A stretch of 64,000 nt of DNA from Candidatus Omnitrophota bacterium (GCA_023143685.1 JAGLHE010000023.1:700-64699); one strand, 5' to 3'. Counted from the first letter of the stretch, positions 22,578-59,082 are shown. Numbers and translations: made by a program. The notes: generated from the sequence alone by a model not told the origin.

Positions 22578-22591
22578 TTCGGTATCCCCTG

Positions 22592-38680: not shown

Positions 38681-39255
38681 ATTTTTTGATTTAACTCTCT
38701 GATAAGACGCGCAGGGTTCCCGGCCCAAACCGTAAAAGGAGGAATATTTTTTGTCACAACACTTCCAGCCCCTACTACGGCCCCCCTTCCAATGGTCACC
38801 CCTTTAAGGATAATGGAATGCCCTCCAATCCAGACATCATCTTCAATAACAACGGGCTTAGCCTGCTCATCAACTCCTTGACCTTGACGACGTTTCTGGA
38901 AATCCAGGGAATGAAAGTCTGTATCATAAATACACGTGTTAGCGCCGATATTAACGTGGTTACCAATTGTCACAGAATCAGCCGCATAGATCACTCCACC
39001 GGACATCCCCGAGTTATTTCCGATATGAATTTGACTATTGGAATAAGGTGCCGCGAGGATCACAGAATGATCGATTCCCGCCAAATTCACCCGTGAATCA
39101 CTATTCAAAACGACATGATCCTCGCAGATGATCCTGGCTTGCGGATGTTTACGGATCAGAGGGCGGCCAAAAGTCCTCAAGCCCTTCCCGAAGGAAACTC
39201 CTCTTAACCAACAATACATCCTCCCCAAAATAAAATAGACAATATACTTACTCAA
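38677..39255 (-). CDS. Hexapeptide-repeat (LbH) acetyltransferase
   Basis: [22 protein letters not shown]...[51 protein letters not shown] is the typical WbbJ/LacA-type O-acetyltransferase core. Confidence 0.88.
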
Positions 39256-42165: not shown

Positions 42166-42192
42166 TTTGAAATTTCCTCTTAAGCTTCATTC

Positions 42193-44085
42193 TTATCCCG
42201 GGACCTTAACGTTTTCAGGCTGTTTTTTGACAAACAAAAACTCAAACTTCTTTTTTACATAAGAGAGACACGGAAACCGTTTATAAAAATTCCGCAACTT
42301 TGTGTAAGAAATCCGTTTAATATCCTGCGGCCAGGTTTTCAATATCAAACATCGCAACGGATGTTTCCGTAAAATAATATCACCTAAAACTAAATAATTA
42401 ATATTCGTGCTGATAAAACAATAAATCGCATCTTCGGGTGTTTCAACAATCGGCTCTCCCGCAACATTAAATGATGTATTAAGGATCACAGGAACCCCGG
42501 TCAATTCGTAATAAGCCTTGACCACCTCATAATATATCCCATTATCCGCTTGTGTTATCGTCTGAACGCGTGCTGTGTTATCTACGTGGGTAATCGCAGG
42601 TAACGGTTGTTTGGCCACGACCTTGGCAATCAACAGCATAAACGGGCTCGGACAATCCAGTTCAAAATAGTCACTATTATGTTCGGCCAAAATCACCGGG
42701 GCAAAAGGACGGAACATCTCACGGTGCTTCACACGCCGGTTTAAAACATCTTTCATATCCGGAAACCGCGTATCACACAAAATACTTCGATGCCCTAACG
42801 CCCGCGGGCCAAATTCAGACCCGCCTTGAAACCAGCCGATAATATTCTTTTTAGAAAGAAGTTCACTTGTTTTCTTAACAACGTTCTCCGCCTTGATCGG
42901 CGAACACCAAAACCGGTTCTTTTCAATAGCCTTGACAATTTCTTCGTCGGAATATGACCTTCCTAAATAGGCATTTCTCATCTCCCAGACACTGGGGTTA
43001 TTTTGATATTTCACCCACCCTAATAGGGCATTGCCAAGCGCGCATCCATCGTCGCTCGCCGCAGGCTGGACAAAAATATTCTCAAAAGGCGTATTATCTA
43101 AAATCTTCTTATTCGCTACACTGTTTAATGCAATCCCACCTGCCAGGCAAAGATTTTTTGATTGTGTCTTTTGATACGCATCATTAGCGATCTTGATCAA
43201 GACCTCTTCAAGAACATATTGCACGGCGGCAGCAACGTCTTTATCGACCTGCCGCAAAGGCTCCCAAGGTTTACGCGGCTGCCCGAACCGGCCGGAATAG
43301 AATTCTTTAGAAATATCATTCCATTTATTAAATTGATAATCTTCCTGAATACTTAATTCACCATTTTCATAATGGACCGCATCCATAAAATCTTTATACA
43401 ATCGATCCGTGCCATACGGGGCCAACCCCATGGTCTTGCCTTCATCCCCAGTTTTAAAACCTATGAACATCGTTGCTGACTGATAAAAATCACCCAACGA
43501 ACAATGTTTTTTATTCGAAAGATATCCGCTTGACGGGACTCCATCTAAACACTGCATCAGCAAATCAATATCTTTGTCATGCCCATGGTAAATTGAAACA
43601 CGTTCTTCATATTGCTCTTCTTGACCGGTCTGGTCATTTTTCTTTGAAAACAAGTTGCCCCCACCATCAGCGATAATGATCGCGGCATCTTTAAATCCCG
43701 ACGGGTAAAATGCGCTCGCCGCATGGCCCAGATGATGACCGACAATATGAACTTTTTGCGGATCCACTTCTTCAGGAAACTGACGCAAAATCTCTTCCCG
43801 TTCAAGATCGCGGGTCCGATAATCCAGATAACTCGCCACTATACTGGTTGAGACAACAAACAAATCAACATCCGTAATATGAACCTTCGCGGCATCCAGG
43901 CAATATTGAATAGATTCTTTCGGCAAATGTTTACTCGTCATCCCCTCGGCATCAATCCCCCCGGTATATCTCTTAATACGATTGAGCCGCTCTTCGGAAA
44001 TAGCATAAAGAACCTGACCATTCTTTAAAAGAGCCGCTGAGATATCATGGCTCACATTAATCCCTAAAATATAAACATCACTCAT
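42193..44085 (-). CDS. Carbamoyltransferase (NodU/CmcH family)
   Basis: YILGINVSHDISAALLKNGQVLYAISEERLNRIK, HHLGHAASAFYPSGF, LAGGIALN and NTSFNVAGEPIV. 630 aa is typical for the family. Confidence 0.9.
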   Translation of the reverse strand: MSDVYILGINVSHDISAALLKNGQVLYAISEERLNRIKRYTGGIDAEGMTSKHLPKESIQYCLDAAKVHITDVDLFVVSTSIVASYLDYRTRDLEREEILRQFPEEVDPQKVHIVGHHLGHAASAFYPSGFKDAAIIIADGGGNLFSKKNDQTGQEEQYEERVSIYHGHDKDIDLLMQCLDGVPSSGYLSNKKHCSLGDFYQSATMFIGFKTGDEGKTMGLAPYGTDRLYKDFMDAVHYENGELSIQEDYQFNKWNDISKEFYSGRFGQPRKPWEPLRQVDKDVAAAVQYVLEEVLIKIANDAYQKTQSKNLCLAGGIALNSVANKKILDNTPFENIFVQPAASDDGCALGNALLGWVKYQNNPSVWEMRNAYLGRSYSDEEIVKAIEKNRFWCSPIKAENVVKKTSELLSKKNIIGWFQGGSEFGPRALGHRSILCDTRFPDMKDVLNRRVKHREMFRPFAPVILAEHNSDYFELDCPSPFMLLIAKVVAKQPLPAITHVDNTARVQTITQADNGIYYEVVKAYYELTGVPVILNTSFNVAGEPIVETPEDAIYCFISTNINYLVLGDIILRKHPLRCLILKTWPQDIKRISYTKLRNFYKRFPCLSYVKKKFEFLFVKKQPENVKVPG

Positions 44086-44188
44086 TGTATTCCTTTCTGC
44101 GAGAAACTTTTATTTTGCATTTTCTGAACGAGCATAAAAGCCCTACGCGTATTATTCAGTGTTGCTAAGGTCACAAAAACCTTGCTCA

Positions 44189-44920
44189 TCATTTTTTCTC
44201 TTCAACACAAAGAAACGACTGTCCAGTGTAGGCATAAGAAAACCATGGCTCAAATACCAGGTTAGAATTTCCTGAAAACTCCCGAAAAGCCCTGCGCTCT
44301 CCTTTATTATTATCTGCTGAAAAGGTATTATAATCATCCATCAATAAAACCGTTCCTGTTTGGATGAACTTTCCACAAATTTCCAGCACATCTTTTGCAG
44401 ATTCATACAAATCGCAATCAATATTAATAATTGCTGCTTTCTTGTCACCAACATTTGTATAAAGCTTATCTTGTGTATCTTTAAACAACCCCTGATATAG
44501 CTGCAACTGTGGAGCTTTTAACCCATTCCTTTGACATCGATTGGAGACAACGTCATATTCCGCAAGAAAATTTCCTTTAGCAAAAGTGGGATTATCCTCC
44601 TGGTTTTCCGGCATACCCGCAAAAGTATCCAACGCATGAAAACACGGAACATGGCCGCTGTAGTTCTTGGCGGTTTCCCGACGCCAAAATTCATCACTGA
44701 CCAACTGATGATCAATCCAATTCTTAGCTATTTTATAATTCTTAAAACTTTCAATTAAAGAATCACCTGTATACACCCCGAACTCAAAATAATCTCCTTC
44801 AATAAAACTTGTATATATATATCCCCACGCCCGATGCAAAGCGCCAGAGCGGTCATTTTTATTAATGTTTCCCCTAACAAATTTCTGATTTATATAATCC
44901 CGAAGCCATCTTCTCAGCAT
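44189..44920 (-). CDS. TylF/MycF-like class I SAM-dependent (O-)methyltransferase
   Basis: GDYFEFGVYTGDSL and AIINIDCDLYESAKDVLEICGKFIQTGTVLLMDDY resemble the macrocin-O-methyltransferase family. Confidence 0.65.
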   Translation of the reverse strand: MLRRWLRDYINQKFVRGNINKNDRSGALHRAWGYIYTSFIEGDYFEFGVYTGDSLIESFKNYKIAKNWIDHQLVSDEFWRRETAKNYSGHVPCFHALDTFAGMPENQEDNPTFAKGNFLAEYDVVSNRCQRNGLKAPQLQLYQGLFKDTQDKLYTNVGDKKAAIINIDCDLYESAKDVLEICGKFIQTGTVLLMDDYNTFSADNNKGERRAFREFSGNSNLVFEPWFSYAYTGQSFLCVEEKK

Positions 44921-45705
44921 CAGCCTCCTCCTCTTTTTAAAATCTGATTGTAGATGTTTTTCTGCTCGTGCTCTCTTTCTAAAATTTTTTCTACGATATC
45001 GACATCTCCGGGATTATCTACTCCATACAATTCTTTATCATAAATAACACCGCGGATTGCGAATCCATGTTCAAGGGTACGAAAAAAATCCACCGACTCT
45101 GTGATTTCAAGCGGTGTAGGGGCTAAACGGGAAAACTCAACCAAAAATTTTTTCGTGAAGGCCGACAACCCTGTTTGCCGGTACAACGGGACATCCTCCC
45201 CTTTTACACGACGATAAGGAACCGATGCTCGAGAAAAATAGAGCACATTACTCTTTTGGTCTAACAAGGCCTTAACAATATCTGTATTCTGGATGTCTTC
45301 TTCCTTTTTAATTGTCGAAAGTAAATTCGTGCAGACGATTTCCTCATCCTGAAACATCGGTTCAACGAGTTGCTTAGCTACTTCCGGCATAAACAACGGC
45401 TCATCCCCCTGAACAATAATAACGATATCCGCATCAATATCCTGGGTCGCTTCTTCAACGCGATCTGTACACCGCTCATGCGTATTAGCGGTCATCACAG
45501 CTTTGCCGCCATGGGCTTGAACCGCATCAACAATCTCTTGGTCGCATGTCGCGACCACAACATCATCAACGACATCCGACAAAATAACCCGTCGTCGCAC
45601 ATGCTCGATCATCGGCAAATCCAAAATTTGCGCCAAAGGTTTTCCTGGAAACCGCGAGGCCCCCATCCGGGCCGGAATGACCGCAATAACTTTTTTTTGC
45701 GACAT
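44920..45705 (-). CDS. KdsB-like cytidylyltransferase (CMP-3-deoxy-ulosonic acid synthetase family)
   Basis: VIAVIPARMGASRFPGKPLAQILDLPMIEHV, VVVATCDQEIVDAV..GGKAVMT, TDRVEEA and IVQGDEPL follow the KdsB pattern closely. Confidence 0.82.
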   Translation of the reverse strand: MSQKKVIAVIPARMGASRFPGKPLAQILDLPMIEHVRRRVILSDVVDDVVVATCDQEIVDAVQAHGGKAVMTANTHERCTDRVEEATQDIDADIVIIVQGDEPLFMPEVAKQLVEPMFQDEEIVCTNLLSTIKKEEDIQNTDIVKALLDQKSNVLYFSRASVPYRRVKGEDVPLYRQTGLSAFTKKFLVEFSRLAPTPLEITESVDFFRTLEHGFAIRGVIYDKELYGVDNPGDVDIVEKILEREHEQKNIYNQILKRGGG

Positions 45706-45728
45706 ATATACAACCTATTCTAAAATGA

Positions 45729-46496
45729 TTACTGTGGTAAAACTCCGCAATCGACATTCAGTGACTGCCCTGTAATGGCTGACGCCTCATCCGAAGCAAA
45801 AAACAAGCATGTCTGCGCGACTTCACGTCCTAAAGGAAGCCGTTTAAGCGCTGCTTGTTGTGCTGCAAAATCCTTTAAGTATTTTTGTGTATTTTTCCCT
45901 TGAGTTGGAGACTGGTTGTTATCCAAAGCATCCAACAAACCCTTTGTCTGAACATACACAGGACAAATCGCGTTGACACGGATCCCCGATGGCCCTAATT
46001 CCTTAGCCAATGCCTGTGTTAACCCGGTTACACCAAACTTTGACGCGCAATAAACGGAATTATTCGCGCTTCCTCGCCTACCGGCAAGGCTTGAAATATT
46101 AATAATGCTCCCGCCCTTTTTTAATTTTGTTGACGCGATTTTGCACCCCCAAAAAGTCCCTTTAAGGTTCGTATCAATCATCTCATCCCAAAAAAGCTCA
46201 TCAATTTCCTTAACCGGCCTCCAGGAGGAGAACCCAGCACAGTTAATATAAACATCTAACTGTTTTGTCCACTGGATTGCCATTTTCACAAGGGCCTGAT
46301 GGCCTTCTTCCTCTCGCACATCCATAGGACAAAACTTCGCACGCTGCCCCAGTCTTTTTGCCAAGCCATTATCTTTACGAGATCCAACAACAACATGATA
46401 ACCTGCCGCATAAAATTCCTTGGCAATCGCCGCACCGATCCCCTTCGTCCCACCCGTAATAATAACTGTTTTATTCTTTAACTTTTTCATACACAC
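45729..46496 (-). CDS. Short-chain dehydrogenase/reductase (SDR)
   Basis: TGGTKGIGAAIAKEF, NISS and YCASKFGV (YxxxK). Confidence 0.88.
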   Translation of the reverse strand: MCMKKLKNKTVIITGGTKGIGAAIAKEFYAAGYHVVVGSRKDNGLAKRLGQRAKFCPMDVREEEGHQALVKMAIQWTKQLDVYINCAGFSSWRPVKEIDELFWDEMIDTNLKGTFWGCKIASTKLKKGGSIINISSLAGRRGSANNSVYCASKFGVTGLTQALAKELGPSGIRVNAICPVYVQTKGLLDALDNNQSPTQGKNTQKYLKDFAAQQAALKRLPLGREVAQTCLFFASDEASAITGQSLNVDCGVLPQ

Positions 46497-46512
46497 ATTC
46501 CTTTAAAAGTTT

Positions 46513-48090
46513 TTAATGATTCTTAATGACAACCTCTGAAACATCAAAATCATTTAATACAGGTGCCGAATCAGCAATCTCAGGGATAGGATCATAACGC
46601 TCATCATTCTTTCTAAAATTCTTATCCCTGAAATATTTAACCAATTTACAATATAGCCAATAGGACACTTGGTTGGGGAGTTCACAAAAACGGACGATCG
46701 GATACATCCATTTGGGAACAGACACATAAAGTATAAATGTCTTTAAAAGCCCATACTGCTCTTGTTTGCTGATCCTGTCATTGCGGATAACCGTATCAAC
46801 GTCATAATTCACCATCGGGACATCTTCATCAATATATCCCTTCTTTAGGCAATACTCCCTTAAGACCGTTCCCGCAAAAGGATAAACAAACCCGGCACAT
46901 GTCACGCCGGGGTCAGACTGCCGGTTGGCCTCGATAGTATCAAAAATCTCCTTGCGTCCTTCTTCCGGTAAGCCCAACAGATTAAAAGCAGTCGTTCTTA
47001 AACGCTTGCGATTGCATAACTGAAACGTCTCAACAATCTGCTTGTTAGTCATATGACGGTTTAAAATCTTTTTTCTTAAATGATCATTTCCTGATTCAAG
47101 CCCGAAGCTTAAAGAAATACACCCCATGTCTTTTAAAATATCCACCTTTTCCTCATTAAGGTAACCGACCTTGCCAAAGGCAATGAATGGCAGACCGATT
47201 TCCTTTTTATAAAACTCGGCAAATTCCCGCATTTTCGACACATTCCACGGCATCATGATCTCATCCATGAACCTGAGGATATCCGGCTTATAATTTTCCT
47301 TAATGAACTTCAGATCCGCGATCGCTTTGGGAAAACTCTTTTCTCTATGATACCGACAATCTTTTTTGTAGAGTTTTCTCAAATAGAAATTGATGCACTC
47401 AAAACAATTGAAGTGGCATCCCCTGCTCATCTCAACATCCATGATGCGATAGACCTTACCCCAGAATGGTCGATAAAGATGTTTTTGGCTGAAACCGGTA
47501 CAATCAGGGACCGGGATATTGTCCAGATCAACGAACGGCCGCACCTCATTACGAATAATCTTGCCGTTTTTCTTCATCCAGACATTCTTAACCGCGGTAA
47601 TATCCTGTCCCTTCTCTATCCGGTCGACCAGTTCGACCAAGGCCTCTTCCCCTTCCCCGACACAAAGCATGTCCACACAATCAAGGTTGATCGTGTCTTC
47701 CGGGTCAACCGTCGGGTGGATGCCGCCGAAGATAGTCAACAAGTCAGGATATTTTTTCTTGATCAGTTCCGCGAGCCGTTTTGAATAAAGAAAATCATTG
47801 GACATCAACGAGAACGCAACAATGTCCGGATGAAAATCATCAATGACGCTCATTAGTTCCTCACCAACGTCACAATCCTTTGACCGGATATAACTGGAGA
47901 TATCCACCGGCTTAAAGAAACCCATGGCCTGATAACGCTCGGTGATCTCCTGAAAATTCGAAGAAAGAAATGTCGTATCAAAAACAAGGACATCATGTCC
48001 TGCTTTCTTTAAACATGCCTGTAGAACCGTTATCCCGATAGGGATGGACTGCGCGCCAACTTCGTTAGGTCTTACAAATAAAACTTTCAT
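46513..48090 (-). CDS. B12-binding-domain radical SAM protein
   Basis: N-terminal cobalamin-binding-like Rossmann segment (MKVLFVRPNE..IPIGITVLQACLKKAGHDVLVFD ... GGIHPT). Radical SAM CX3CX2C motif in MSRGCHFNCFEC. Confidence 0.82.
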   Translation of the reverse strand: MKVLFVRPNEVGAQSIPIGITVLQACLKKAGHDVLVFDTTFLSSNFQEITERYQAMGFFKPVDISSYIRSKDCDVGEELMSVIDDFHPDIVAFSLMSNDFLYSKRLAELIKKKYPDLLTIFGGIHPTVDPEDTINLDCVDMLCVGEGEEALVELVDRIEKGQDITAVKNVWMKKNGKIIRNEVRPFVDLDNIPVPDCTGFSQKHLYRPFWGKVYRIMDVEMSRGCHFNCFECINFYLRKLYKKDCRYHREKSFPKAIADLKFIKENYKPDILRFMDEIMMPWNVSKMREFAEFYKKEIGLPFIAFGKVGYLNEEKVDILKDMGCISLSFGLESGNDHLRKKILNRHMTNKQIVETFQLCNRKRLRTTAFNLLGLPEEGRKEIFDTIEANRQSDPGVTCAGFVYPFAGTVLREYCLKKGYIDEDVPMVNYDVDTVIRNDRISKQEQYGLLKTFILYVSVPKWMYPIVRFCELPNQVSYWLYCKLVKYFRDKNFRKNDERYDPIPEIADSAPVLNDFDVSEVVIKNH

Positions 48091-48115
48091 TTGATCTAAT
48101 TTCCATTTATTAATG

Positions 48116-48910
48116 TTAAATCGTCATACACGAAAAACCGCCGTCAACAGCAACCTCTGCTCCGGTGGCAAACCCTGCCGCATCCGAACATAACCACAAA
48201 ACAGCTCCGACAAGTTCTTTAGGCTTTCCATACCGCCCCATCGGTGTATGCCCTAAGATCGCATTCTCCCGCTGTTTAGTAATAAAATTCTTCATACTCC
48301 AGTTTGTTGGAAAAAATCCAGGACGCAAAGCATTCACGCGCACATTAAGCGGCGCCCATTCACGTGCTAAATTTTGCGTTAAATTCTTTACCCCTGCCTT
48401 AGCCACTGAATACGTAAAGGCCTTTGATAATGGGGGGCCAGACGAGGCCGAGGACATATTAATGATGCATCCTTTTTTTCGTTTCACCATATATCCGCCA
48501 AAAACCTGGCACCCTAAAAACGTTGCCTTAATATGTGAATCTAAAATCGCGCTCCATTCGTCTTCTGGAATTTCTAAAAATGGCGTTGGCGCGTTAATTC
48601 CCGCGCCATTAATAAGAATATCTACTTTCTTAAATTGCTTTAACACCTCTTCAAGCATCTGTTGATGACTATTTTTATCCGTTGCTTCAAACGCGAGCCC
48701 TATGGCCTTGCCCCCAGCCTTTTGAATCTGCTTAACAACCTTATCCGCTTTTTCCTGCCGCAAATCCAAAACCGCAACCGACACACCCGCCTTCGCTAAC
48801 CCACGCGCCATCTCCCCGCACAAATGACCTCCGCCACCGATCACGACCGCCACTTTCCCCTCTAAATTAAAAAAGTCTTTCAAATAATCTTTTTTCGCCA
48901 TTTCATTCAC
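48116..48910 (-). CDS. Short-chain dehydrogenase/reductase (SDR, gluconate-5-dehydrogenase-like)
   Basis: VIGGGGHLCGEMARGLAKAG, NGAGIN, NMSS and YSVAKAGV (YxxxK). Confidence 0.86.
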   Translation of the reverse strand: MNEMAKKDYLKDFFNLEGKVAVVIGGGGHLCGEMARGLAKAGVSVAVLDLRQEKADKVVKQIQKAGGKAIGLAFEATDKNSHQQMLEEVLKQFKKVDILINGAGINAPTPFLEIPEDEWSAILDSHIKATFLGCQVFGGYMVKRKKGCIINMSSASSGPPLSKAFTYSVAKAGVKNLTQNLAREWAPLNVRVNALRPGFFPTNWSMKNFITKQRENAILGHTPMGRYGKPKELVGAVLWLCSDAAGFATGAEVAVDGGFSCMTI

Positions 48911-48913
48911 CTT

Positions 48914-49888
48914 TTATTTTTTCGTCATAACATTTAACTTTGAAAATCGATGAAACATTTCTCCATCAAAATAATTCACCAAAGGAATACGCCATTTTCC
49001 TAATTGCGGCCCCTTTTCGGTACGATGATGACTTAAAACATATTTATACCACGGACATTTCCCATCAACAAAATGTTGATCTTCCGCCTGCCAAGGATAC
49101 GATAAAAACCTTGAAATCTCACCTTGCGCCATACGCTTTTCTTCCCGATTACAACAATAAAACCTATTCTCCTGATGAAGATGTGTTCGTAAGAACTGAA
49201 AATACTGATTAACTGTTTCCTCATTCATCTCCTGCATCGAGGCAATATTAACCGCGAAATCAAATTTCTGATCATCAAGCTCTGAGAGAAGCTCACTTGG
49301 ACAATAAATAAAATCTGCCTGGTTATCAACGAGTTCGCCCGCTTTGACCAACACATGTTTTGCTTGGGGAAAAACCTTTTGACAATAATAGGACTGAAAA
49401 AGAAGCGTCTTGCCTAAATCCACCAAAACAATTTTTGCCTCGGGATATATTTCTTTTAACATCGAGGAAAAGAAACCATAGCCATCTCCAATATTAATAA
49501 TCTTCTTCGGGGGCTGTGCTGAAAAATGTTCCGACAAAAAACTTAACGCGCAGGCCTGGCGAAAACAATCATACGAAAAAGGAAAACCCATCTTTTTTGC
49601 TATCGGACGCGCCACCTTCTTCATCTTTAAAATTTCACCACGATTTTTCAAATGGCACAAATAACTTAAAATCGTCAGCCACGAAAAAATCCGTGTCGGC
49701 AAAGACCGATACTCCATATCCCCGAACCCGAATCCTTGCAGCGCGTCAATCTTGCCCTCGGCCATATGCACATTCACTTTTTGATGAAACTCCTGCCAAT
49801 GGGATGAAACCAATTCCTGAGGGGTCACATCAGACTCATAATAGTCACAGTAAAGATCTTGTATTATCATACCCTGACTATCTGACAT
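48914..49888 (-). CDS. Putative sugar O-methyltransferase-like protein
   Basis: IINIGDGYGFFSSMLKEIYPEAKIVLVDL is a motif-I-like Rossmann segment, and the overall size matches the putative sugar O-methyltransferase family. Start moved to Met51 (ATG 49888, ACGGAG SD), which overlaps the HAD gene by 11 nt. Confidence 0.55.
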   Translation of the reverse strand: MSDSQGMIIQDLYCDYYESDVTPQELVSSHWQEFHQKVNVHMAEGKIDALQGFGFGDMEYRSLPTRIFSWLTILSYLCHLKNRGEILKMKKVARPIAKKMGFPFSYDCFRQACALSFLSEHFSAQPPKKIINIGDGYGFFSSMLKEIYPEAKIVLVDLGKTLLFQSYYCQKVFPQAKHVLVKAGELVDNQADFIYCPSELLSELDDQKFDFAVNIASMQEMNEETVNQYFQFLRTHLHQENRFYCCNREEKRMAQGEISRFLSYPWQAEDQHFVDGKCPWYKYVLSHHRTEKGPQLGKWRIPLVNYFDGEMFHRFSKLNVMTKK

Positions 49889-50531
49889 ACGCACTCCGTT
49901 GAATAGCCTGCTTGATTTCACAGAAATCCTTACAAACCAAAACATTCGCATCTTCAAAGGGCCGCCCGCTATCTCTCCCGATAAAATGAACACCTGTTTC
50001 CTTTGCAGCAAGGTAATCCTGCTGTGTGTCCCCGACATAAATAACCTGCTCCGCGCTAAAACCTTCCTGCTTTAAAATCTCCCTAAAAGCATCCACCTTT
50101 TTCCAGGGATAGGTATACACTTTTTTAAAATATTGCGCGATTTTTTTAGCGATGAGAATTCTTTGGAATTCATCTTCCGGATTAACTGTGGCAATATAAA
50201 AAGTCATCTGAGGGGCATACTCTTTTAAGAAATCTTCCAACCCTTCCACAAACGGCGCGGCAATAATTTTCCCAACAATATAATTCGAATAATCCTGACA
50301 CAGCTGCGCCTCTCTCTCCGGTGTAAAAGGCTGCTTTAAAATATTCTCCGTAATATGTTTAAACTTTTCAAAACGGATCGTCGCGTTATTCTCTATATGA
50401 TACGCTATAATCTCGTCAAACTGCTGCGGATAACCTTTAAAAAGCTCTTTAAAAGCCGCGTCCTTAATCCCAACTGACTCAACAATTACGCCGTCAAAAT
50501 CTAAAATAATCGCTTTAATATTCATCCCCAA
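49878..50531 (-). CDS. HAD-superfamily hydrolase (phosphatase, subfamily IA-like)
   Basis: Motif I AIILDFDGVIVES, a cap-domain-length insert, and motif IV YVGDTQQDYLAAKETG. Confidence 0.85.
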   Translation of the reverse strand: MGMNIKAIILDFDGVIVESVGIKDAAFKELFKGYPQQFDEIIAYHIENNATIRFEKFKHITENILKQPFTPEREAQLCQDYSNYIVGKIIAAPFVEGLEDFLKEYAPQMTFYIATVNPEDEFQRILIAKKIAQYFKKVYTYPWKKVDAFREILKQEGFSAEQVIYVGDTQQDYLAAKETGVHFIGRDSGRPFEDANVLVCKDFCEIKQAIQRSAYVR

Positions 50532-50534
50532 AAC

Positions 50535-51323
50535 CTACTTCCTTAATTTCGCGACACAAACCTTCATCTTTTCAGCCCATTTCCAAAGAACAAAAATATC
50601 CGACGCCAAAATGACAAATGTAAACCCTGCCTTAAAATTCTTTTTAAGACTATTTAAATCCGGCTCAATGTTCTGCGTACCGCAAGCCTTCTTATGTTTC
50701 TTACATGAGGCAATCACATGCTGACAAAGATCCTTCACCTTTTTATGATGGATCTGCCCTGGAATCCCTAACGACCCTGACATATCGTACGGTCCGATCA
50801 TAACCCCATCAATATCCGGACGTTTAAGAATACTTTCAATATTTTCAGCCGCTTCCCTCGACTCAATCTGAGGGATAATCACCGAAGACTCATTCCAGGT
50901 TCTGGCATTTTTATCGAAATCAAAACCGTATCCTTGCCCCCGAGCGATCCCGAAACTGCGATTTCCTTTCGGCACATATTTTGTCCACTCAATAATGCTA
51001 TCCGCTTCACCCGCATTATTAACCATCGGCGCAATAATCCCATCCGCGCCAGAATCCAAAAGACGTTTGATCATTGGCATATTATGAGAATCAATACGCG
51101 GCAGACATAACGACCCTTCCGCCTGAGCCGCGGTAATTATTGCCTGTGACTGTTCCAAGCTGATCGTGCTATGCTCAATATCAATCCCCACAAAATCAAC
51201 GCCTGACTTCGCGAAGATCTCAGTGATCCCGGGAGACGCAAATGATGTCCACGCGCCTAAAACCTTCTCGCGAGAACGCAACTTCTTTTTTAATTTTCGT
51301 CGTCTTTGAACAAGTTGATCCAT
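50535..51323 (-). CDS. HpcH/HpaI-family class II (pyruvate) aldolase
   Basis: LGAWTSFASPGITEIFAKSGVDFVGIDIEHS, PRIDSHNMPMIKRLLDSGADGIIAPMV and GPYDMSGSLG follow the HpcH/HpaI aldolase pattern. Confidence 0.8.
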   Translation of the reverse strand: MDQLVQRRRKLKKKLRSREKVLGAWTSFASPGITEIFAKSGVDFVGIDIEHSTISLEQSQAIITAAQAEGSLCLPRIDSHNMPMIKRLLDSGADGIIAPMVNNAGEADSIIEWTKYVPKGNRSFGIARGQGYGFDFDKNARTWNESSVIIPQIESREAAENIESILKRPDIDGVMIGPYDMSGSLGIPGQIHHKKVKDLCQHVIASCKKHKKACGTQNIEPDLNSLKKNFKAGFTFVILASDIFVLWKWAEKMKVCVAKLRK

Positions 51324-52006
51324 TAGGCCTTCTCCCCTTTTGCCGCATCTTCAAGAAACATCTGAACCGTTTCCTTTGTATACGGGTGCACCAACATTCC
51401 TTCAATCAATTTTGGAACAGCTGTAACAATATGCGCCCCGGCATTAAGCCATTCAACAATATTTAAAACTTCCCGCGTTGATCCCACAATAATTTCTGCC
51501 TTTAAACCAAAATTATCAATCAAGTCACGAATCTTCTCGATCTCTTCAATCACGTTATATCCCATATTATTCACGCGTCCACCGAAAATCGAAACATACG
51601 TGGCTCCCGCCATCGCCGCCAGCAAACACTGCTGCGCGCTCATCATCGCGGTCACATTCACTCGGATATCATGTTTTGTTTCCAGCTCATGGATTACTTC
51701 CATATTATCCAATTCCCCGTTAGGGCCATGAACCGTGATCTTCACATTAATATTCTTTGCCCACCCCGCCATCTCTTTGGCTTGCACAATCATTTCCTCT
51801 TTATCATTACTCGTCACTTCAACCGAAAGCGGCAACGGAGCAATCAATTTTGCCATTTCGATCGTGTGCGCTTTGACCGCAGCCATCCCGCCCGTAACGC
51901 CATCTTTAAGAAGAATCGTTGGATTAGTCGTTACTCCTCGAATGATCCCCATTTTATGGTATTTCTTGATTTCTTCAATATTCCCGGTATCCAAAAAAAT
52001 AGCCAT
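51323..52006 (-). CDS. Short transaldolase / fructose-6-phosphate aldolase (TalC/FSA) family enzyme
   Basis: MAIFLDTGNIEEIKKY..GIIRGVTTNPTIL, NVKIT (Schiff-base lysine context) and SIFGGR. 227 aa, the FSA/TalC size class. Confidence 0.85.
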   Translation of the reverse strand: MAIFLDTGNIEEIKKYHKMGIIRGVTTNPTILLKDGVTGGMAAVKAHTIEMAKLIAPLPLSVEVTSNDKEEMIVQAKEMAGWAKNINVKITVHGPNGELDNMEVIHELETKHDIRVNVTAMMSAQQCLLAAMAGATYVSIFGGRVNNMGYNVIEEIEKIRDLIDNFGLKAEIIVGSTREVLNIVEWLNAGAHIVTAVPKLIEGMLVHPYTKETVQMFLEDAAKGEKA

Positions 52007-52040
52007 ACAATTTTCCTTTCCTTTAGAAATATTCTTTCAC

Positions 52041-52913
52041 TTAAAATCTTGTAAAAACATAATTAAACATCTTTAATTCCTCTGGCCCACACTGATGCTG
52101 AGAATGAATACGAAACCCATTTTCTATCAAACACTTCACAATATCATCTTTATCATCCCCTGCCTCGACAAGAACACTCTTCAACGCGGGATTTAATAAA
52201 GTTTTTTGCGCCCCATCCAAAATTTCCTTTTCAATCCCATCCACATCCAGCTTAATATGGTTCGGGACAGGAAGGTCAAAACTTTCAATCAAGTCGTCCA
52301 TCGCATAACTCAAGACCGTTTGTTTAAAGGCCGCGTCAAATGTTTCATGCTTGTAATCAATCGCCTCACCCAAATTATGCAAAGCCCCTCCGGGGATAAG
52401 GTTCTGATAATAAAAATAATCGACTGTTGTCCGCCCGGCAAGCGCGATATTTAAAGGAATGATAGCCTCTCCGCATTTATTTAAATGAATATTTTTGCAC
52501 AACTGCGGAAAATTCAAAAAAGACGGCTCAAAGGCATATACTTGAACATCATCCTTAAGATGCTTTGACGTTACCAAGGAATACGCGCCAACATTTGCGC
52601 CAATATCAAAAAGAACATCGCCAGGCTTTATAAAGGTCTCAATCCATTCAATTGTTTCAGGCTCTTTCACACAAGAATGCAATCGCACATCTTTTTCGAT
52701 AGAGGACGAAAGATCCAGAAAAATATCCGCCTTCCCATAATCCATCTTTTTAACAACGCGTATTCGACTCTTAAGATAAACCCTAAAAGACGATGGCAAA
52801 ACATTAACAAAAGCATTATTCATTCGATCAACAAAAGACAGCCATTTCCTTTTTAACCCCTTAAGTCGATTCCACTGATTCTTAGACAACTTATTTCTTA
52901 ATATTCTTCTCAT
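52041..52913 (-). CDS. FkbM-family methyltransferase
   Basis: VLFDIGANVGAYSLV, VYAFEPSFLNFPQLCKNI and IKLDVDGIEKEIL are the FkbM family pattern. Confidence 0.82.
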   Translation of the reverse strand: MRRILRNKLSKNQWNRLKGLKRKWLSFVDRMNNAFVNVLPSSFRVYLKSRIRVVKKMDYGKADIFLDLSSSIEKDVRLHSCVKEPETIEWIETFIKPGDVLFDIGANVGAYSLVTSKHLKDDVQVYAFEPSFLNFPQLCKNIHLNKCGEAIIPLNIALAGRTTVDYFYYQNLIPGGALHNLGEAIDYKHETFDAAFKQTVLSYAMDDLIESFDLPVPNHIKLDVDGIEKEILDGAQKTLLNPALKSVLVEAGDDKDDIVKCLIENGFRIHSQHQCGPEELKMFNYVFTRF

Positions 52914-52930
52914 ATCAGGTATTAATCGTT

Positions 52931-54319
52931 TTATGATTGACGAAAACCTCGGAAACTCGCGTCGCGTTCCAAATAAAGTTTGCGTGTCTGTTCTTTAAAA
53001 GATAAACTTTTATTCTTAAAATAATTTTCCAACAATCTTTCGTTGGCCTCAGAAAGAGCCTCATAAAATTCATCATCTGTTAACTCTGTAAAATTAATTG
53101 CCATAAGGTCGGAATTAAGATGTTTATTTTCATAAAAATCTTCACAATCTTTCAACAATCCCTTCTCAATCGCATGATAATACAGCGGAGAACCAGGATA
53201 CGGAGTAACTGGACGAATCGTACGCAACTGAGCGCCGTCGTCATACTTCAATAAAAATTCAACTCCCTTATTAAGAGTTTCTCGATTCTCTCCGATATTA
53301 CCATAAATAATGTTATAACCCGGACTAATCCCTGCCGCTAACGTTGCTTCAATTCCCTTAACGATCTGCTTTGTTGTTAATGCCTTATTCATATTTTTTA
53401 ATATCTGATCATCCATCGCCTCAATACCATAATTAATAAAAACGCAGCCCGATTCTTTCATAAGCTTCAGCACATCCGCACGCGCATAATTCAACCGGCC
53501 ATTACAGTTCCATTTAATCTTTAACTGTGCTTTCAAAAAATCTTTACACAAGCTCTCAACCCGATCAATAGAGGACATGAGAAGTTCATCAGAAAAACTA
53601 ATATATGTAATATTATATTCTTTCTGTAAAAATTTAATCTCATCAATAATCGCCTCATTCCTTCGAGGACGAAACCCCTCATCCATACGATAACAAAAGT
53701 TACACTTAAACGTACAGCCCCTCCCGGAAAGCATACGCGCCGTAAAATCCGTTTTAGATGAATTCGGCATCGGTAATAACCGATAGTATTCCATAGGAAA
53801 CAAATCATATGCCGGCAGGGAAATAGTATCAATATCTTTTATTAACGGTTCTCGTTCATTAACAAAAACATCGTTTCCATCCCGATAAGCAATCCCTTTA
53901 ACGTGCGATAAAGAGGATTTTTGAGAGACAGCATTAACCAAGTTAACAACAATTTCTTCACCTTCTCCAAGAACCGCGACATCGGCCTGTGTCTTTTTCA
54001 GAAAATACTCAGGCTCTGGGGCTGGACCATGTCCGCCAATAATACAAAATGGCCGATTTTTCGACTTATTAATCGCATCCGAAAGGGCAAGAAGTTTACG
54101 GTACTGATAATACCCTCCAATAACGCTAACGCCAACAAAATCAAATTTATTATTATCCAAATATTCCGTAAGATGCTCATCCGGATAATGATGAAGATCC
54201 TGATTATAGATCTCAACATCAACACCATTATTACGAAGAACCGCCGCAATATACGCTAATCCTAAAGGAATATCATGGATATAAGATTTATTATCATAAA
54301 CAACGAGTAAAAATCGCAT
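52931..54319 (-). CDS. B12-binding-domain radical SAM protein
   Basis: N-terminal cobalamin-binding-like segment (MRFLLVVYDN..PLGLAYIAAVLRNNGVDVEIYNQD ... GGHGP). Radical SAM CX3CX2C motif in SGRGCTFKCNFC. Confidence 0.82.
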   Translation of the reverse strand: MRFLLVVYDNKSYIHDIPLGLAYIAAVLRNNGVDVEIYNQDLHHYPDEHLTEYLDNNKFDFVGVSVIGGYYQYRKLLALSDAINKSKNRPFCIIGGHGPAPEPEYFLKKTQADVAVLGEGEEIVVNLVNAVSQKSSLSHVKGIAYRDGNDVFVNEREPLIKDIDTISLPAYDLFPMEYYRLLPMPNSSKTDFTARMLSGRGCTFKCNFCYRMDEGFRPRRNEAIIDEIKFLQKEYNITYISFSDELLMSSIDRVESLCKDFLKAQLKIKWNCNGRLNYARADVLKLMKESGCVFINYGIEAMDDQILKNMNKALTTKQIVKGIEATLAAGISPGYNIIYGNIGENRETLNKGVEFLLKYDDGAQLRTIRPVTPYPGSPLYYHAIEKGLLKDCEDFYENKHLNSDLMAINFTELTDDEFYEALSEANERLLENYFKNKSLSFKEQTRKLYLERDASFRGFRQS

Positions 54320-54346
54320 TAAAACATCTCCTTTACTGCACCCTAT

Positions 54347-54949
54347 TTATACATTTGTCACGGATTCCCATTTATTGCTGATCTGCATAATCCGTGGATC
54401 CGAAACGATCAAATGCCAGACAACACCCTGAAACGCTTCGGAGTGAGGTGTAATCGTCGCTGAATTAACCGGTGGAACAATGACACAGGCATCAGCAACT
54501 TTTGCCGTATACCCCCCATCACGGCCAACAACACCAACAATTTTTGCCTTTTGTTCTTTGGCATACTCCAAGGCATATACCAGATTAGCACTTATATTTC
54601 TTTCCTTATTGCCTCCGCCCACAGAAAACACAAAAATAGCATCATTTTCATTTAAACGAGAGCTCTTAAGCCACTCAGCAAATACCGTATGCCACCCCTC
54701 ATCGTTCGTGCGCGCTGTTAGCTCTGACACATTATCTGTCGGGGCGTAGGACTCAAACCCACCTATCTTACGAAAATCATTGACGGCATGAGAGCAGTTG
54801 CCCGCACTTCCGCCAACGCCTAAGAAAAAAAGACGCCCCTCCTGAGAACGAATATTCAACAAAATCTCAATGATCTTCTCAATCTGTGACTGGTCGATCT
54901 TTTTAATAATCTCGACCGCTTCCTCAAAATAACGGCTGATGTATGACAT
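54347..54949 (-). CDS. SIS-domain sugar-phosphate isomerase (GmhA-like)
   Basis: RLFFLGVGGSAGNCSHAVNDF, DAIFVFSVGGGN and AKIVGVVGRDGG fit a single SIS domain of GmhA size (200 aa), with no CBS pair as in KdsD. Confidence 0.78.
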   Translation of the reverse strand: MSYISRYFEEAVEIIKKIDQSQIEKIIEILLNIRSQEGRLFFLGVGGSAGNCSHAVNDFRKIGGFESYAPTDNVSELTARTNDEGWHTVFAEWLKSSRLNENDAIFVFSVGGGNKERNISANLVYALEYAKEQKAKIVGVVGRDGGYTAKVADACVIVPPVNSATITPHSEAFQGVVWHLIVSDPRIMQISNKWESVTNV

Positions 54950-54961
54950 CCTGCACCTCTT

Positions 54962-55984
54962 TCAATTATCTTTTTTCCTAATTAAAATACGGCCATAAGA
55001 GCTCAATAAATTCACTTGCAGGAATTCCTGAAAAGCTCTTTTGACATTTTCATCTTTATTATTAATCAACCCTCGCGTAAATCGCGAAAGTTCAAAATCA
55101 GGATTGTCGTTTGCGACCTTTTCTACAATCTCTAAATCTAAAATACCCGGTGTACTGAATTCGATGCATTCAAAACCGCAACGCTCAAACAATTTCTTCA
55201 ACCCCTCAACAGAAAAAACATTGAGGCGGTCCGGAGGATAAAGACTTTCCGATCTTCCCCACAACACTTGAATATCAAAACCCGATGAAAGAATCGCCGT
55301 AATAAAGCATAGTCCGCTGGGCTTAAGCATCTTACCAATGTTCTCAAAAATATTCTCAACATCAGAAGTGTGATCCAGGACTTCAAAAAGAGAAACGACA
55401 TCCACTTGATTTTCAAGCTTTGCCCCCCACCCTTTGTCCCTTAAAACAGATACTGTGCTGTCACTTTTGATATTTTCGCCATTCAAATAAGGATTCAGTA
55501 ATGTTTTTTTCTCAAAGAATGGTGTTTCCAACATCTCGTCGATATACCCATATTGACTCGTATGGACATCTACCCAGTGCTTCGCACCTGAGAGAAACTC
55601 CTGCGTCGAATCTAATATCCATTCACAGCGAGGCTTAAAAATCTTTTCTTTCCGTTTTTGCTCTGTGGCCTTAAAAAGTTTCTCTTGCCAAAATTTTCGT
55701 GAAGGGCTCTCATTGTAATAATAACTTAACGTTTCTTCATCAGGACGAGGAGAGACATAAAGCGTCTGACACTCAAGACATTCCTTAAATTGCATACCCA
55801 ACTTCTTGAAGGCTTCCTGGGCCTTGCTGGCACCACACCCAGGGCAGGAACACTCCTTTAGGGAAGGTGATTTTACTAAGAGGGACTGTACATCCTCCTC
55901 TGTCATCTGGATATACTGTTCTAACAATTCAGACGGTTTTAAGTCTAACTCATTGTACTCATCAAAAATGACAATGTTTTTCAT
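54962..55984 (-). CDS. Class I SAM-dependent methyltransferase with N-terminal zinc-ribbon
   Basis: CPGC...CLEC cysteine pairs and VDVVSLFEVLDHTSDVENIFENIGKMLKPSGLCFIT core. Confidence 0.7.
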   Translation of the reverse strand: MKNIVIFDEYNELDLKPSELLEQYIQMTEEDVQSLLVKSPSLKECSCPGCGASKAQEAFKKLGMQFKECLECQTLYVSPRPDEETLSYYYNESPSRKFWQEKLFKATEQKRKEKIFKPRCEWILDSTQEFLSGAKHWVDVHTSQYGYIDEMLETPFFEKKTLLNPYLNGENIKSDSTVSVLRDKGWGAKLENQVDVVSLFEVLDHTSDVENIFENIGKMLKPSGLCFITAILSSGFDIQVLWGRSESLYPPDRLNVFSVEGLKKLFERCGFECIEFSTPGILDLEIVEKVANDNPDFELSRFTRGLINNKDENVKRAFQEFLQVNLLSSYGRILIRKKDN

Positions 55985-57008
55985 CGTCGCCCTCGCTTAC
56001 TAAATTGGATTCTGCATCTTTGTAGGCCTGCTCAATGATTTCCATAACCCTTAACGCGTCATGAGAAGAACTCATCGTAACAGCTTTATTTTCTTGTATA
56101 CATTTCACGAACTCATCAACTTCAATATCCCAGGAAAGATCCCTGTCAAAATACGTAACCTCCTCCGACGGATTGCCGACCGCTTCGGCCTCATCTTCAA
56201 ATTGGCGTTTCGCGACAATCAGTTTTTCCCGTCCATAACTCCCTGTTTTAGAAAGCAATCCTTCCACGATCATATACCCTTCTTCTAAAATAATATTCAT
56301 CTGGAAAGTATGTCTCCACAATGTTGCTGAGGAATGCAAAGAAGCCGTCTGGCCTTTATGGTTCTGAAGAATCACGAAGGCATTGTCTTCTAAATCAAAC
56401 TTCCAGAAAGCGGTATTAACAAAACATTTCACATGTTCAAAGTCATCGCAGAAATACCGGAACAAATCCAACATATGAATGCCCTGGTCCAAAAGGATGC
56501 CTCCCCCTGAAATTTCTTTCTTATTACGCCATGACTCATGGTATTTGGCCCCACCGGATTTCCCATAAACACCCCTCAATCCGATAATCTTTCCAACCCG
56601 CCCACTTTCAATAAGCACCTTGGCCTTGGCAATCCCGGGATGATATCGGTGATTAAAACCGAACATCAACTTTACGCCCTTTTTTTCATGCGCGCGCATG
56701 TCTAAAATATCCTGGACGTTACGGCCCGGCGGCTTCTCGCAAAAAACATGTTTGCCCAAATCCATGGCCCTCATGGCAATCTCCGGCGAAAAGCAGTTCG
56801 GAGTACACACAAAAATAATATCTACATCTTGTTTGAGAAGTTCCTCATAAGATTTAAACGCAGGAACATCCTGAATTTTTTCTCTGACATCATCCTGAAC
56901 TTCACAGATGCCAACCAATTTTAGACCGGGAAGGCTCTCGACAACACGCCGTCGGATTTCCCCCATATACCCATACCCTATAATCCCACATTTCAAGACA
57001 TCCTTCAT
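55962..57008 (-). CDS. Gfo/Idh/MocA-family NAD(P)-dependent sugar oxidoreductase
   Basis: KCGIIGYGYMG, VFCEKP and GFNHRYHP motifs. The ORF-track Met1 is a TTG codon, so I took ATG 57008, which is preceded by GAGGTGGAG. Confidence 0.85.
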   Translation of the reverse strand: MKDVLKCGIIGYGYMGEIRRRVVESLPGLKLVGICEVQDDVREKIQDVPAFKSYEELLKQDVDIIFVCTPNCFSPEIAMRAMDLGKHVFCEKPPGRNVQDILDMRAHEKKGVKLMFGFNHRYHPGIAKAKVLIESGRVGKIIGLRGVYGKSGGAKYHESWRNKKEISGGGILLDQGIHMLDLFRYFCDDFEHVKCFVNTAFWKFDLEDNAFVILQNHKGQTASLHSSATLWRHTFQMNIILEEGYMIVEGLLSKTGSYGREKLIVAKRQFEDEAEAVGNPSEEVTYFDRDLSWDIEVDEFVKCIQENKAVTMSSSHDALRVMEIIEQAYKDAESNLVSEGDDEKHCHF

Positions 57009-57183
57009 CTCTATTTTCTCCACCTCAATCAATTTAATTTATTGATCAATCCTTATTTTCAAAATTACATTTTAACAGCAATAATGCCTTAAAAATTATA
57101 CTATTTATAAAAAATATCGACATATCTAAAGTCATTTCTTTGCAGCCTTTGTTCACCCATCCTCCGACAAAGGGTCAAAGTCC

Positions 57184-58113: not shown

Positions 58114-59082
58114 TTACCATTCCCTTTCATAACCAGCAATCATTTCATCCAAATACTTCAAACACTCTTTATTGGCAATCGCCTTAATCTTTTCCCATCG
58201 ATCGGCACGCCCCTCTTCTGACACATCCCAGGGCAGACGCATTTTCTTAACCTCTTTATTTGTATAACGCGTGGTGCGTGTCCCTAAAAAATCCGCCATT
58301 TTTTCTGAAATTCCCAGAGGGTTAACGACCAATTCCTCGAATCGTAACAACAGGATCCGGCTCTGTATTTCAGAAGACAGCTTTTCATATCCTTTTCTTA
58401 TTTTTTCATTAAGAACATAAAGCATGCGAATAACCCGATCAACCGGTGATGCCTTTAAATATTCTTCTTCCCATCCTGCACCAAGGTAATACACCGCAGC
58501 ATCCTTGTGTTCAAGGCATATCGAAAAATCTCTCGCGGTTGAGCACATCCTTTGCCCATGCCCACGGTTCATCCAAGCATCAATTGTATCAATAGGATTA
58601 CGCATCAACTCGATCACATGAAGTTTTTCCCCATAGGCATCAAAATGAAGATCCATATGTTCCATCTGATGATGCGTTCCTACTTGGAAAATGGGTATTT
58701 CTTTCTTTATTTTCGCGACACACGCATCGCCATCCTGGTCAAAAAGGCGTCGCAAATATTTCTTCCAATCAGGATACCGGAAAATACTAGTGCTGTCTTT
58801 CCATCGGAAATTCGAATTGCGCGCCAGGCAAGCATGATAACAAAAAATATCAGCTTCCAACCGCAGAAGCGTTGCAGCAGCATCCCTTTGTATTTTTCCA
58901 AACCCGTAAAGAACCCCGACGTAATCAAAAATTTCTTCAACACGCTCGGACTCCACTCGTTCCATGGTCGCAAGCATCCTTGAAGTAACAGTTTTTCCGC
59001 TTCGTGAAGGACCATCAACGAGGACAATCTCTTGCGGCATAGAACATGGGCGACAAATTTTGACATCATGAATCTTTTCCAT
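58114..59082 (-). CDS. Sulfotransferase-family protein (candidate)
   Basis: LVDGPSRSGKT resembles a 5-prime-PSB loop, ELMRNPIDTIDAW a 3-prime-PB-like R-x-P-x-D motif, and LLLRFEELVVNPLGISEKMADFLG the typical sulfotransferase C-terminal block. Confidence 0.6.
   Translation of the reverse strand: MEKIHDVKICRPCSMPQEIVLVDGPSRSGKTVTSRMLATMERVESERVEEIFDYVGVLYGFGKIQRDAAATLLRLEADIFCYHACLARNSNFRWKDSTSIFRYPDWKKYLRRLFDQDGDACVAKIKKEIPIFQVGTHHQMEHMDLHFDAYGEKLHVIELMRNPIDTIDAWMNRGHGQRMCSTARDFSICLEHKDAAVYYLGAGWEEEYLKASPVDRVIRMLYVLNEKIRKGYEKLSSEIQSRILLLRFEELVVNPLGISEKMADFLGTRTTRYTNKEVKKMRLPWDVSEEGRADRWEKIKAIANKECLKYLDEMIAGYEREW

Follow-up and report, generated by a model that had tools for sequence, protein, structure and literature searches.

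Flagella, capsules and O-antigens carry legionaminic and pseudaminic acids, sugars that influence motility, recognition by phages and evasion of the immune system. To our knowledge, the modifications known for these sugars are N-acyl and O-linked groups, which are introduced by conventional enzymes. A second field that bears on the present locus is that of the cobalamin-dependent (class B) radical S-adenosylmethionine (SAM) enzymes, most of whose characterised members are methylases; cytidylyl-2-hydroxyethylphosphonate is the compound that Fom3 methylates, and the targets of GenK and MoeK5 are sugars (PMC9204698). Both fields may meet in a stretch of 64,000 nucleotides from Candidatus Omnitrophota bacterium (GCA_023143685.1, JAGLHE010000023.1:700-64699), called here the window, which contains two genes for B12-binding radical SAM proteins, rSAM_A (46513-48090, minus strand, 525 amino acids (aa)) and rSAM_B (52931-54319, minus strand, 462 aa). 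The two proteins are new members of the class B radical SAM tailoring enzymes, a known class. Judged by its conserved synteny, rSAM_B belongs to the pathway of legionaminic acid (Leg) as an accessory gene, and no earlier description of such a gene was found. Both enzymes would tailor ulosonic acids activated with cytidine monophosphate (CMP) for a surface glycan, an overall explanation that we place slightly on the probable side.

The class assignment was based on Pfam domains, sequence motifs, AlphaFold models and Foldseek searches. In Pfam, rSAM_A matched the B12-binding family PF02310 at 1.4e-21 (77 bits) and the Radical_SAM family PF04055 at 8e-15, and the corresponding values for rSAM_B were 1.9e-17 (63.6 bits) and 4.6e-21; against a PF02310 cutoff of 32.1 bits, these scores are far beyond chance. 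The CX3CX2C motif reads CHFNCFEC in rSAM_A (C225, C229 and C232) and CTFKCNFC in rSAM_B (C202, C206 and C209), and an alignment of 60 homologues for rSAM_A and one of 50 for rSAM_B show no variation at any of the three cysteines. A preliminary description of this DNA had placed two open reading frames with an N-terminal B12-binding segment and a CX3CX2C motif at these positions and had proposed a profile assignment to the two families as a check; both proteins pass the Pfam cutoffs, and the motifs are present.

Three motifs of base-off, His-off cobalamin binding are defined for OxsB, TsrM and TokK (PMC9204698): the beta3 loop has G/A-x-S/T-x-X, beta4 has Gly-Gly, and alpha5 begins with Gly-Glu. 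In rSAM_B these motifs appear as G63-x-S65-x-I67, G95-G96 and G118-E119-G120-E121, all of them conserved, and in rSAM_A as A92-x-S94-x-M96, G122-G123 and G145-E146-G147-E148; the homologue alignments of both families show GG and GE(GE) as invariant or almost invariant. The AlphaFold2 models are confident, with a predicted local distance difference test score (pLDDT) of 94.2 for rSAM_A and 89.8 for rSAM_B. In Foldseek, both models aligned over their full length with the solved class B enzymes TsrM (the top structural match of rSAM_B), OxsB, TokK, CysS and MgmA, and with AprD4, all of which share less than 20% sequence identity with them. By domains, cofactor motifs and fold, rSAM_A and rSAM_B have a genuine class B architecture. 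The N-terminal fold had been named beforehand as a point on which the idea could fail, and a cobalamin-type Rossmann fold with its motifs is present. Both proteins are predicted to bind cobalamin, a prediction to be read with the example of AprD4, which shows that the fold alone is no proof of binding.

A further finding concerns the genomic company of rSAM_B. More than 4300 homologues were obtained at E <1e-10, and the top 120 are 70-79% identical to rSAM_B and nearly all exactly 462 aa long. In a library of representatives at 50% identity, the orthogroup is covered by two representatives at 63-64% identity, followed by about 15-20 further ones of nearly full length at 39-57%, beyond which full-length matches are mostly paralogues at 28-40%. 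On this distribution of identities the rSAM_B orthogroup is discrete, and it is probably mobile by horizontal transfer. Orthologues were located in 80 genome loci (63-75% identity) of Omnitrophota, Nitrospirota, Desulfobacterota, Planctomycetota, Bacillota, Campylobacterales, Spirochaetes, candidate phyla radiation (CPR) bacteria and Methanolobus, and of metagenome-assembled genomes (MAGs) of Asgard archaea and Woesearchaeota. Open reading frames around the gene were called and clustered, and the largest families were named by NCBIfam; loci of at least 8 kb (n = 69) are referred to as long loci.

Genes of the Leg pathway dominate these neighbourhoods. A LegF-type CMP-transferase was present in 51 of the 80 loci, NeuB/LegI in 48, LegB (TIGR04180, 511 bits), DegT/LegC and PtmE in 43 each, NeuC/LegG in 42 and NeuD/LegH in 25, and the members of the WbuX/HisH/WbuZ amidotransferase trio in 20-23. 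At least three leg families occur in 51 of the 69 long loci, and a leg gene lies within 200 nucleotides (nt) of rSAM_B in 30 of 63 loci. Immediately next to rSAM_B, LegF is met most often (12 times upstream and 7 times downstream), and the genes are typically arranged as LegB-LegC-LegH-LegI-LegG-PtmE-LegF-rSAM_B, with a transferase and a flippase after them. The gene is also found in islands for the glycosylation of flagellin: families of flagellin or of Maf type (MptE-like) adjoin the cluster in Wukongibacter baidiensis (L082), in Marinospirillum (L084) and in a Marinamargulisbacteria MAG (L009), which argues that rSAM_B would go with the sugar and not with a particular acceptor. The copy in Marinospirillum perlucidum (L084, 10001-11386) has two in-frame stops, at the conserved positions W16 and Y359, beside intact leg genes and flagellins, and is probably a pseudogene.

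Radical methylation had been considered rare for a cell-surface polysaccharide locus in the preliminary description. This estimate was not borne out, since the homologues of rSAM_B come from numerous phyla of bacteria and archaea, where most of them are part of leg operons, and since further class B radical SAM paralogues were found in 18 of the 69 long rSAM_B loci, one of which, from a Thermodesulfovibrionales MAG (L088), holds four in all. Class B radical SAM enzymes are common in the glycan loci of anaerobes. Single loci of glycan type with three to five class B paralogues together with radical SAM proteins of SPASM type were seen in L088, L175, L161 and L108, a multiplicity that points to large-scale tailoring of anaerobe surface glycans by radical chemistry.

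The rSAM_A family is looser, with 487 homologues, and only eight of the top matches reach 50% identity or more. One of these (P0123, 62% identity) lies in a nonulosonic-acid glycan locus with NeuB, CTP_transf_3, DegT, GNAT and flippase genes; another (P0126, 57%) has a sulfotransferase, an ABC transporter and other radical SAM genes as neighbours; and a third (P0127, 55%), again in a nonulosonic-acid locus, is accompanied by leg genes, HpcH, a 2-hydroxyacid dehydrogenase, a haloacid dehalogenase (HAD)-family gene, a KdsB-like transferase and a gene for a 704-aa homologue of a 710-aa protein of the window. Two further relatives are fusions, one of a B12-binding radical SAM protein with NeuB, beside CTP_transf_3 and DegT genes (P0223), and one with an epimerase/dehydratase of the short-chain dehydrogenase/reductase (SDR) superfamily (P0202). 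Around more distant relatives (30-39% identity), in 40 long metagenome loci, the recurrent genes were extended SDR (19 loci), DegT (12), HAD (9) and 2-hydroxyacid dehydrogenase (9), and weak homologues (20-26% identity) of a 625-aa protein of the window adjoined them in 7. These contexts indicate that the rSAM_A family is tied to glycan loci.

The contig analysed here also carries a Campylobacter-type leg set. Proteins of the window are identical to ones encoded on contig DAOWHB010000038.1 (Candidatus Omnitrophica MAG GCA_030641635.1). Just upstream of window position 64000 lie genes for a LegB-like dehydratase, a PtmA-like SDR, NeuB/LegI, NeuC/LegG and a PglD-like LegH, along with a GFO-family PtmF-like protein, CTP_transf_3/LegF, the CBS-NTP transferase PtmE, HisF/WbuZ and HisH. 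The members of the set inside the window are a DegT/LegC-type aminotransferase (61253-62422, minus strand; PF01041, 7.6e-107) and a WbuX/PtmG-type N-acetyl sugar amidotransferase, which would form the acetamidino group (62415-63695, minus strand; TIGR03573, 338.6 bits against a cutoff of 203); HisH and HisF/WbuZ are located just upstream of WbuX. LegB, LegC, LegH, LegG, LegI and LegF, and PtmE of the route linked to guanosine diphosphate (GDP), by which a leg locus is recognised, are all found on this contig.

The amidotransferase genes raise the question of whether rSAM_B might fill the role of PtmH, that is, N-methylate the 5-acetamidino group of Leg to N-methylacetimidoyl by a TsrM-like polar transfer from methylcobalamin. 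WbuX, HisH and HisF are present on this contig, TsrM is the top structural match, 7 loci have a gene of WbuX/PtmG type directly upstream of rSAM_B, and 22 of the 69 long loci contain the amidotransferase trio; yet about two thirds of the rSAM_B loci lack amidotransferase genes altogether. The Legionella pneumophila homologue of PtmH (Cj1325), ORF 8, is a putative methyltransferase of 228-239 aa, about half the size of rSAM_B (PMC3766260), and in a Clostridium study the PtmH orthologue appears as a ‘methyltransferase’, with radical SAM proteins as separate entries. Some of the same leg clusters, moreover, include class I methyltransferases of about 227 aa. We regard this role as very improbable. 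An identification of rSAM_B with PtmH itself was rejected on size and annotation alone, ORF 8 having about 230 aa and rSAM_B 462 aa in two unrelated domains.

The action that we propose for the two enzymes is radical C-methylation. rSAM_B would most likely act on Leg, CMP-Leg or a late precursor, and rSAM_A would probably modify a second sugar, resembling 3-deoxy-D-manno-oct-2-ulosonic acid (Kdo), or a side chain of that sugar, which a module of fructose-6-phosphate aldolase (FSA), sugar isomerase (SIS), HpcH, HAD and KdsB-like genes would make. SAM would be reductively cleaved to a 5'-deoxyadenosyl radical, this radical would take a hydrogen atom from an unactivated sp3 carbon, and methylcobalamin would then give its methyl group to that carbon, leading to a C-methyl-branched or chain-extended ulosonic acid. 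This chemistry is favoured because methylases prevail among the characterised class B enzymes, because Fom3 uses a CMP-linked substrate and because GenK and MoeK5 act on sugars. For both proteins, we infer the substrate as well as the methyl transfer. C-methylation is about evenly poised for rSAM_B and stands somewhat below that for rSAM_A.

A number of observations weigh against this proposal. Neither protein reaches a curated NCBIfam cutoff for BchE, PhpK, HpnJ, HpnR, BzaD, MgmA, KedN5/GenK-type enzymes, TsrM, the ladderane radical SAM enzyme or AprD4. The best score of rSAM_B was with BchE, a cyclase (137.6 bits against a cutoff of 481), and the enzyme of ladderane lipids was also among the best; for rSAM_A it was with TIGR04013, an uncharacterised B12-binding radical SAM family (91.6 against 251), with enzymes of peptides made on the ribosome and modified after translation (RiPPs) also among the best. 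As only sub-cutoff scores were obtained, the sequence does not assign a chemistry. AprD4 (6fd2), a diol dehydratase and not a methylase, is the best sequence match in the PDB for both proteins (2.8e-17 and 1e-8), and the two SDRs on either side of rSAM_A recall the pairing of AprD4 with AprD3. One close homologue of rSAM_A (P0124, 60% identity) is found on an archaeal contig where the nearby genes are of ribosomal, prefoldin and diphthamide type and include none for sugars. Finally, the nearest leg gene in the window is some 7 kb away from rSAM_B, which sits inside the second module, so that rSAM_B could here have another substrate than its orthologues.

The archaeal homologue raises the alternative of a non-glycan substrate (a lipid, a peptide or a cofactor), the sugar genes being mere neighbours. 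This alternative can also point to the profile scores, in which the similarity to class B enzymes that modify lipids and tetrapyrroles is as high as to any other family. Against it stand the leg synteny of rSAM_B, kept across phyla in 51 of the 69 long loci, and the fused forms of rSAM_A relatives, one with NeuB and one with an SDR epimerase. The arrangement of the genes speaks the same way: all genes of the 64-kb window are on the minus strand, the gaps beside both radical SAM genes measure 16-27 nt, and terminator-like sites are not in excess in the window (15 found against 17.1 expected from shuffled sequence), a terminator and promoter scan that was in itself uninformative. The array looks co-transcribed, and a substrate outside the glycan is considered scarcely probable.

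A more serious rival keeps the sugar as substrate and changes the radical chemistry. One or both enzymes could carry out an AprD4-like 1,2-diol dehydration which, followed by an SDR reduction, would amount to a net deoxygenation, or else an epimerisation or a rearrangement of the skeleton, as in OxsB, BchE and HpnJ. This is the main rival, and it applies especially to rSAM_A because that gene sits directly between two SDRs, as AprD4 goes with its reductase AprD3. Besides being the top PDB sequence match, AprD4 is among the top structural matches of both proteins, with template modelling (TM) scores of 0.73 and 0.64. Of the NCBIfam models, BchE and the ladderane enzyme score best for rSAM_B and HpnJ scores high for both proteins, and the sugar methylases are not the best for either. 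The AprD4 family model itself, however, has a cutoff of 500 bits and gives the two proteins only 73 and 43, and the phmmer alignments to AprD4 span the radical SAM core only, whereas those to OxsB, MgmA and TokK reach into the cobalamin domain. All three base-off cobalamin motifs are strictly conserved, and the class B enzymes characterised so far are mostly methylases, as said above (PMC9204698). On balance, a chemistry other than methylation seems unlikely, and C-methylation is retained as the preferred proposal. Assignment to a characterised family was attempted and abandoned: the sub-cutoff NCBIfam matches were scattered over BchE, the ladderane enzyme, PhpK, HpnJ, HpnR, BzaD, RiPP C-methylases, MgmA, KedN5 and AprD4, and the PDB sequence and structure searches failed to separate the methylases from AprD4.

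The position of rSAM_B in the window has a likely explanation of its own. In the second module, this gene and one for an FkbM-family methyltransferase separate SIS from FSA, and the G+C content (GC) of rSAM_B is the lowest of the locus (0.372, and 0.322 at third codon positions, GC3); that of FkbM is 0.384, and that of the flanking SIS and FSA genes about 0.44. On the metagenome contig L129, which carries homologues of this module, SIS and FSA are directly adjacent, and the FkbM homologue is found elsewhere in the array. Whole-module synteny was not found around the rSAM_B orthologues, where only DegT and WbuX recur, and a KdsB/HpcH module accompanies rSAM_B only in L066 and L074. As the module does not recur with the orthologues, rSAM_B was taken to be an accessory gene of the leg set that entered the second module here by insertion. 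The data suggest that rSAM_B and FkbM form a mobile cassette whose recent insertion broke the adjacency of SIS and FSA, FkbM probably having entered together with rSAM_B.

The second CMP-ulosonic acid module spans 41233-57032 on the minus strand and includes, in addition to the genes named in the following, a GFO oxidoreductase and a methyltransferase. The SIS-domain sugar-phosphate isomerase, which is GmhA-like (54347-54949; PF13580, 9.7e-10), gave sub-cutoff gmhA matches and has a 72% homologue in L129. Directly downstream of rSAM_B lies the FkbM-family methyltransferase (52041-52913; PF05050, 1.8e-10), followed by a protein of the fructose-6-phosphate aldolase/transaldolase family (51323-52006; PF00923, 6.1e-41; TIGR00875, 159 bits, sub-cutoff), which has a 69% homologue in L129. 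The HpcH/HpaI class II pyruvate aldolase (50535-51323; PF03328, 2.6e-26) recurs together with KdsB-like genes in L066, L074, L092 and L129. Next to it are a HAD-family phosphatase that could be KdsC-like (49878-50531; PF13419, 4.6e-17) and a weak methyltransferase-like protein (48914-49888, 324 aa in the database gene call; PF05175, 1.9e-4, sub-cutoff). rSAM_A itself sits between two SDR oxidoreductases, one upstream (48116-48910; PF13561, 5.7e-51) and one downstream (45729-46496; PF13561, 5.8e-56), two genes upstream of a KdsB-like CMP-ulosonic acid cytidylyltransferase (44920-45705; PF02348, 7.5e-43; NF009905, 274 bits against a cutoff of 255). The module continues with a TylF-like O-methyltransferase (44189-44920; PF05711, 1.1e-12), a carbamoyltransferase of NodU/CmcH type (42193-44085; PF16861, 6.3e-66, and PF02543, 2.3e-52) and a D-2-hydroxyacid dehydrogenase (41233-42165; PF02826, 2.5e-50), a family that recurs with rSAM_A relatives. 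All of these genes are on the minus strand.

The Kdo-type functions seen in this module are the KdsB-like transferase, which exceeds its subfamily cutoff, the SIS isomerase and the HAD phosphatase. A phosphoenolpyruvate synthase of KdsA or NeuB type was not found in the second module, which has the HpcH pyruvate aldolase and the FSA aldolase in its place. HpcH is proposed to form a 2-keto-3-deoxy acid, and the module as a whole would make a Kdo-like sugar of this kind by aldol addition of pyruvate, dephosphorylation and CMP activation. The core of the module recurs at 43-72% identity in L129, and in part in L066, L074 and L092. The preliminary description had listed SDRs, aldolases and methyltransferases as neighbours of the two radical SAM genes, in a sugar pathway of a surface glycan and not in a cofactor or antibiotic cluster. 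The two SDRs, the HpcH and FSA/transaldolase genes and several methyltransferases are indeed there, and the other neighbouring genes agree with this context. The sugar setting therefore stood, and the generic “sugar-nucleotide pathway” gave way, on gene content, to two CMP-activated ulosonic-acid routes.

From about 20 kb on, the window is a surface-polysaccharide locus with an initiating transferase, Wzy-like proteins, glycosyltransferases (GTs) of the GT1, GT2 and WecG families, acyl- and methyltransferases, a carbamoyltransferase and a radical SAM protein of SPASM type. The latter, the third radical SAM protein of the array, is of the SPASM/twitch type (35736-36872, minus strand; PF04055, 1.4e-24; PF13186, 1.1e-4), and SPASM-type proteins recur in the related loci L021, L037, L088 and L175. 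The 710-aa protein (59124-61256, minus strand) has no Pfam or NCBIfam match and is a possible GT-B-like ulosonic-acid transferase; its homologues in L005/L086 and L092 adjoin sulfotransferase and leg genes. The 625-aa protein (36851-38728, minus strand), which has no Pfam match, shares with it a short GT-B-like C-terminal motif, and the two may be the transferases for the two ulosonic acids. After the 710-aa protein comes a weak sulfotransferase-like protein (58114-59082, minus strand), whose counterpart in the Omnitrophota locus L086 (14168-17870) is followed by a fusion of pyruvate kinase and ATP sulfurylase and by an adenosine phosphosulfate (APS) kinase; the sulfotransferase-like protein and these sulfate-activation genes hint at a sulfated glycan. 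An FrhB/FdhB-like protein (29973-30956, minus strand) and a UbiA-family prenyltransferase beside a 492-aa protein without a family match (21696-24070, minus strand) were also noted in the polysaccharide locus. The NCBI contig DAOWHB010000038.1 would begin at about window position 13761, and the protein encoded at 9301-11070 was matched only in other assemblies of the same population; the window thus comes from a longer contig than that NCBI record.

A full-text literature search found no paper linking radical SAM/cobalamin enzymes to nonulosonic, legionaminic or pseudaminic acids, to flagellin glycosylation or to capsular polysaccharide, and glycans and sugars are unmentioned in a 2026 review of B12-dependent radical SAM enzymes. 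Tentatively, and with a probability well short of even, the orthologues of rSAM_B may be the first radical cobalamin-dependent C-methylases of nonulosonic acid biosynthesis, converting Leg or CMP-Leg to a C-methyl-branched or chain-extended ten-carbon ulosonic acid that would be widespread on the surfaces and flagella of anaerobes. If this is true, the conserved radical SAM/B12 step in the leg operons of many phyla implies an unrecognised carbon-modified nonulosonic acid, and class B chemistry, so far associated with antibiotics, lipids and cofactors, reaches mainstream cell-surface glycans as well. CMP-activated ulosonic acids with a marker of a C10 backbone were detected by mass spectrometry in Magnetospirillum gryphiswaldense, where their biosynthesis is unexplained (bioRxiv 10.64898/2026.04.20.719630); a C-methylating rSAM_B would provide a genetic basis for these ‘C10’ sugars, a link that is only a lead. 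The orthogroup is well defined and present in the cultured isolates Iocasia fonsfrigidae and Wukongibacter baidiensis, which makes the question directly testable.

Compared with the described systems, rSAM_A and rSAM_B belong to the same enzyme class as GenK, GenD1 and MoeK5, which C-methylate carbohydrate carbons in antibiotic pathways. Those enzymes serve the secondary metabolism of actinomycetes, whereas a cell-surface or flagellin glycan is predicted here, and the KedN5/GenK-type model NF033712 scores only 71 and 54 bits against a cutoff of 700. Fom3 of the fosfomycin pathway shares the B12-binding Rossmann domain and the radical SAM core and methylates an sp3 carbon of a substrate with a CMP handle (PMC9204698), a parallel to rSAM_B, which is found most often beside LegF. 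In contrast, Fom3 acts on a phosphonate and not on an ulosonic acid, there was no match to a Fom3 family model, and the identity is below 20%. AprD4 of apramycin biosynthesis offers the best PDB sequence match and a top structural match, acts on an aminosugar and has a reductase partner of SDR type, as the SDR-flanked rSAM_A might have; it differs in that its family model is matched far below cutoff and its B12-like N-terminal domain cannot be aligned by sequence, and the cobalamin motifs are conserved in both of the present families. The Campylobacter-type CMP-legionaminic acid pathway (LegB/C/H/G/I/F, PtmA/E/F and PtmG) is described without a radical SAM step, and its known methylase, PtmH, is a protein of about 230 aa as judged by the L. 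pneumophila homologue ORF 8. It is the gene set of this pathway, nevertheless, that is present on the contig and that surrounds the orthologues of rSAM_B.

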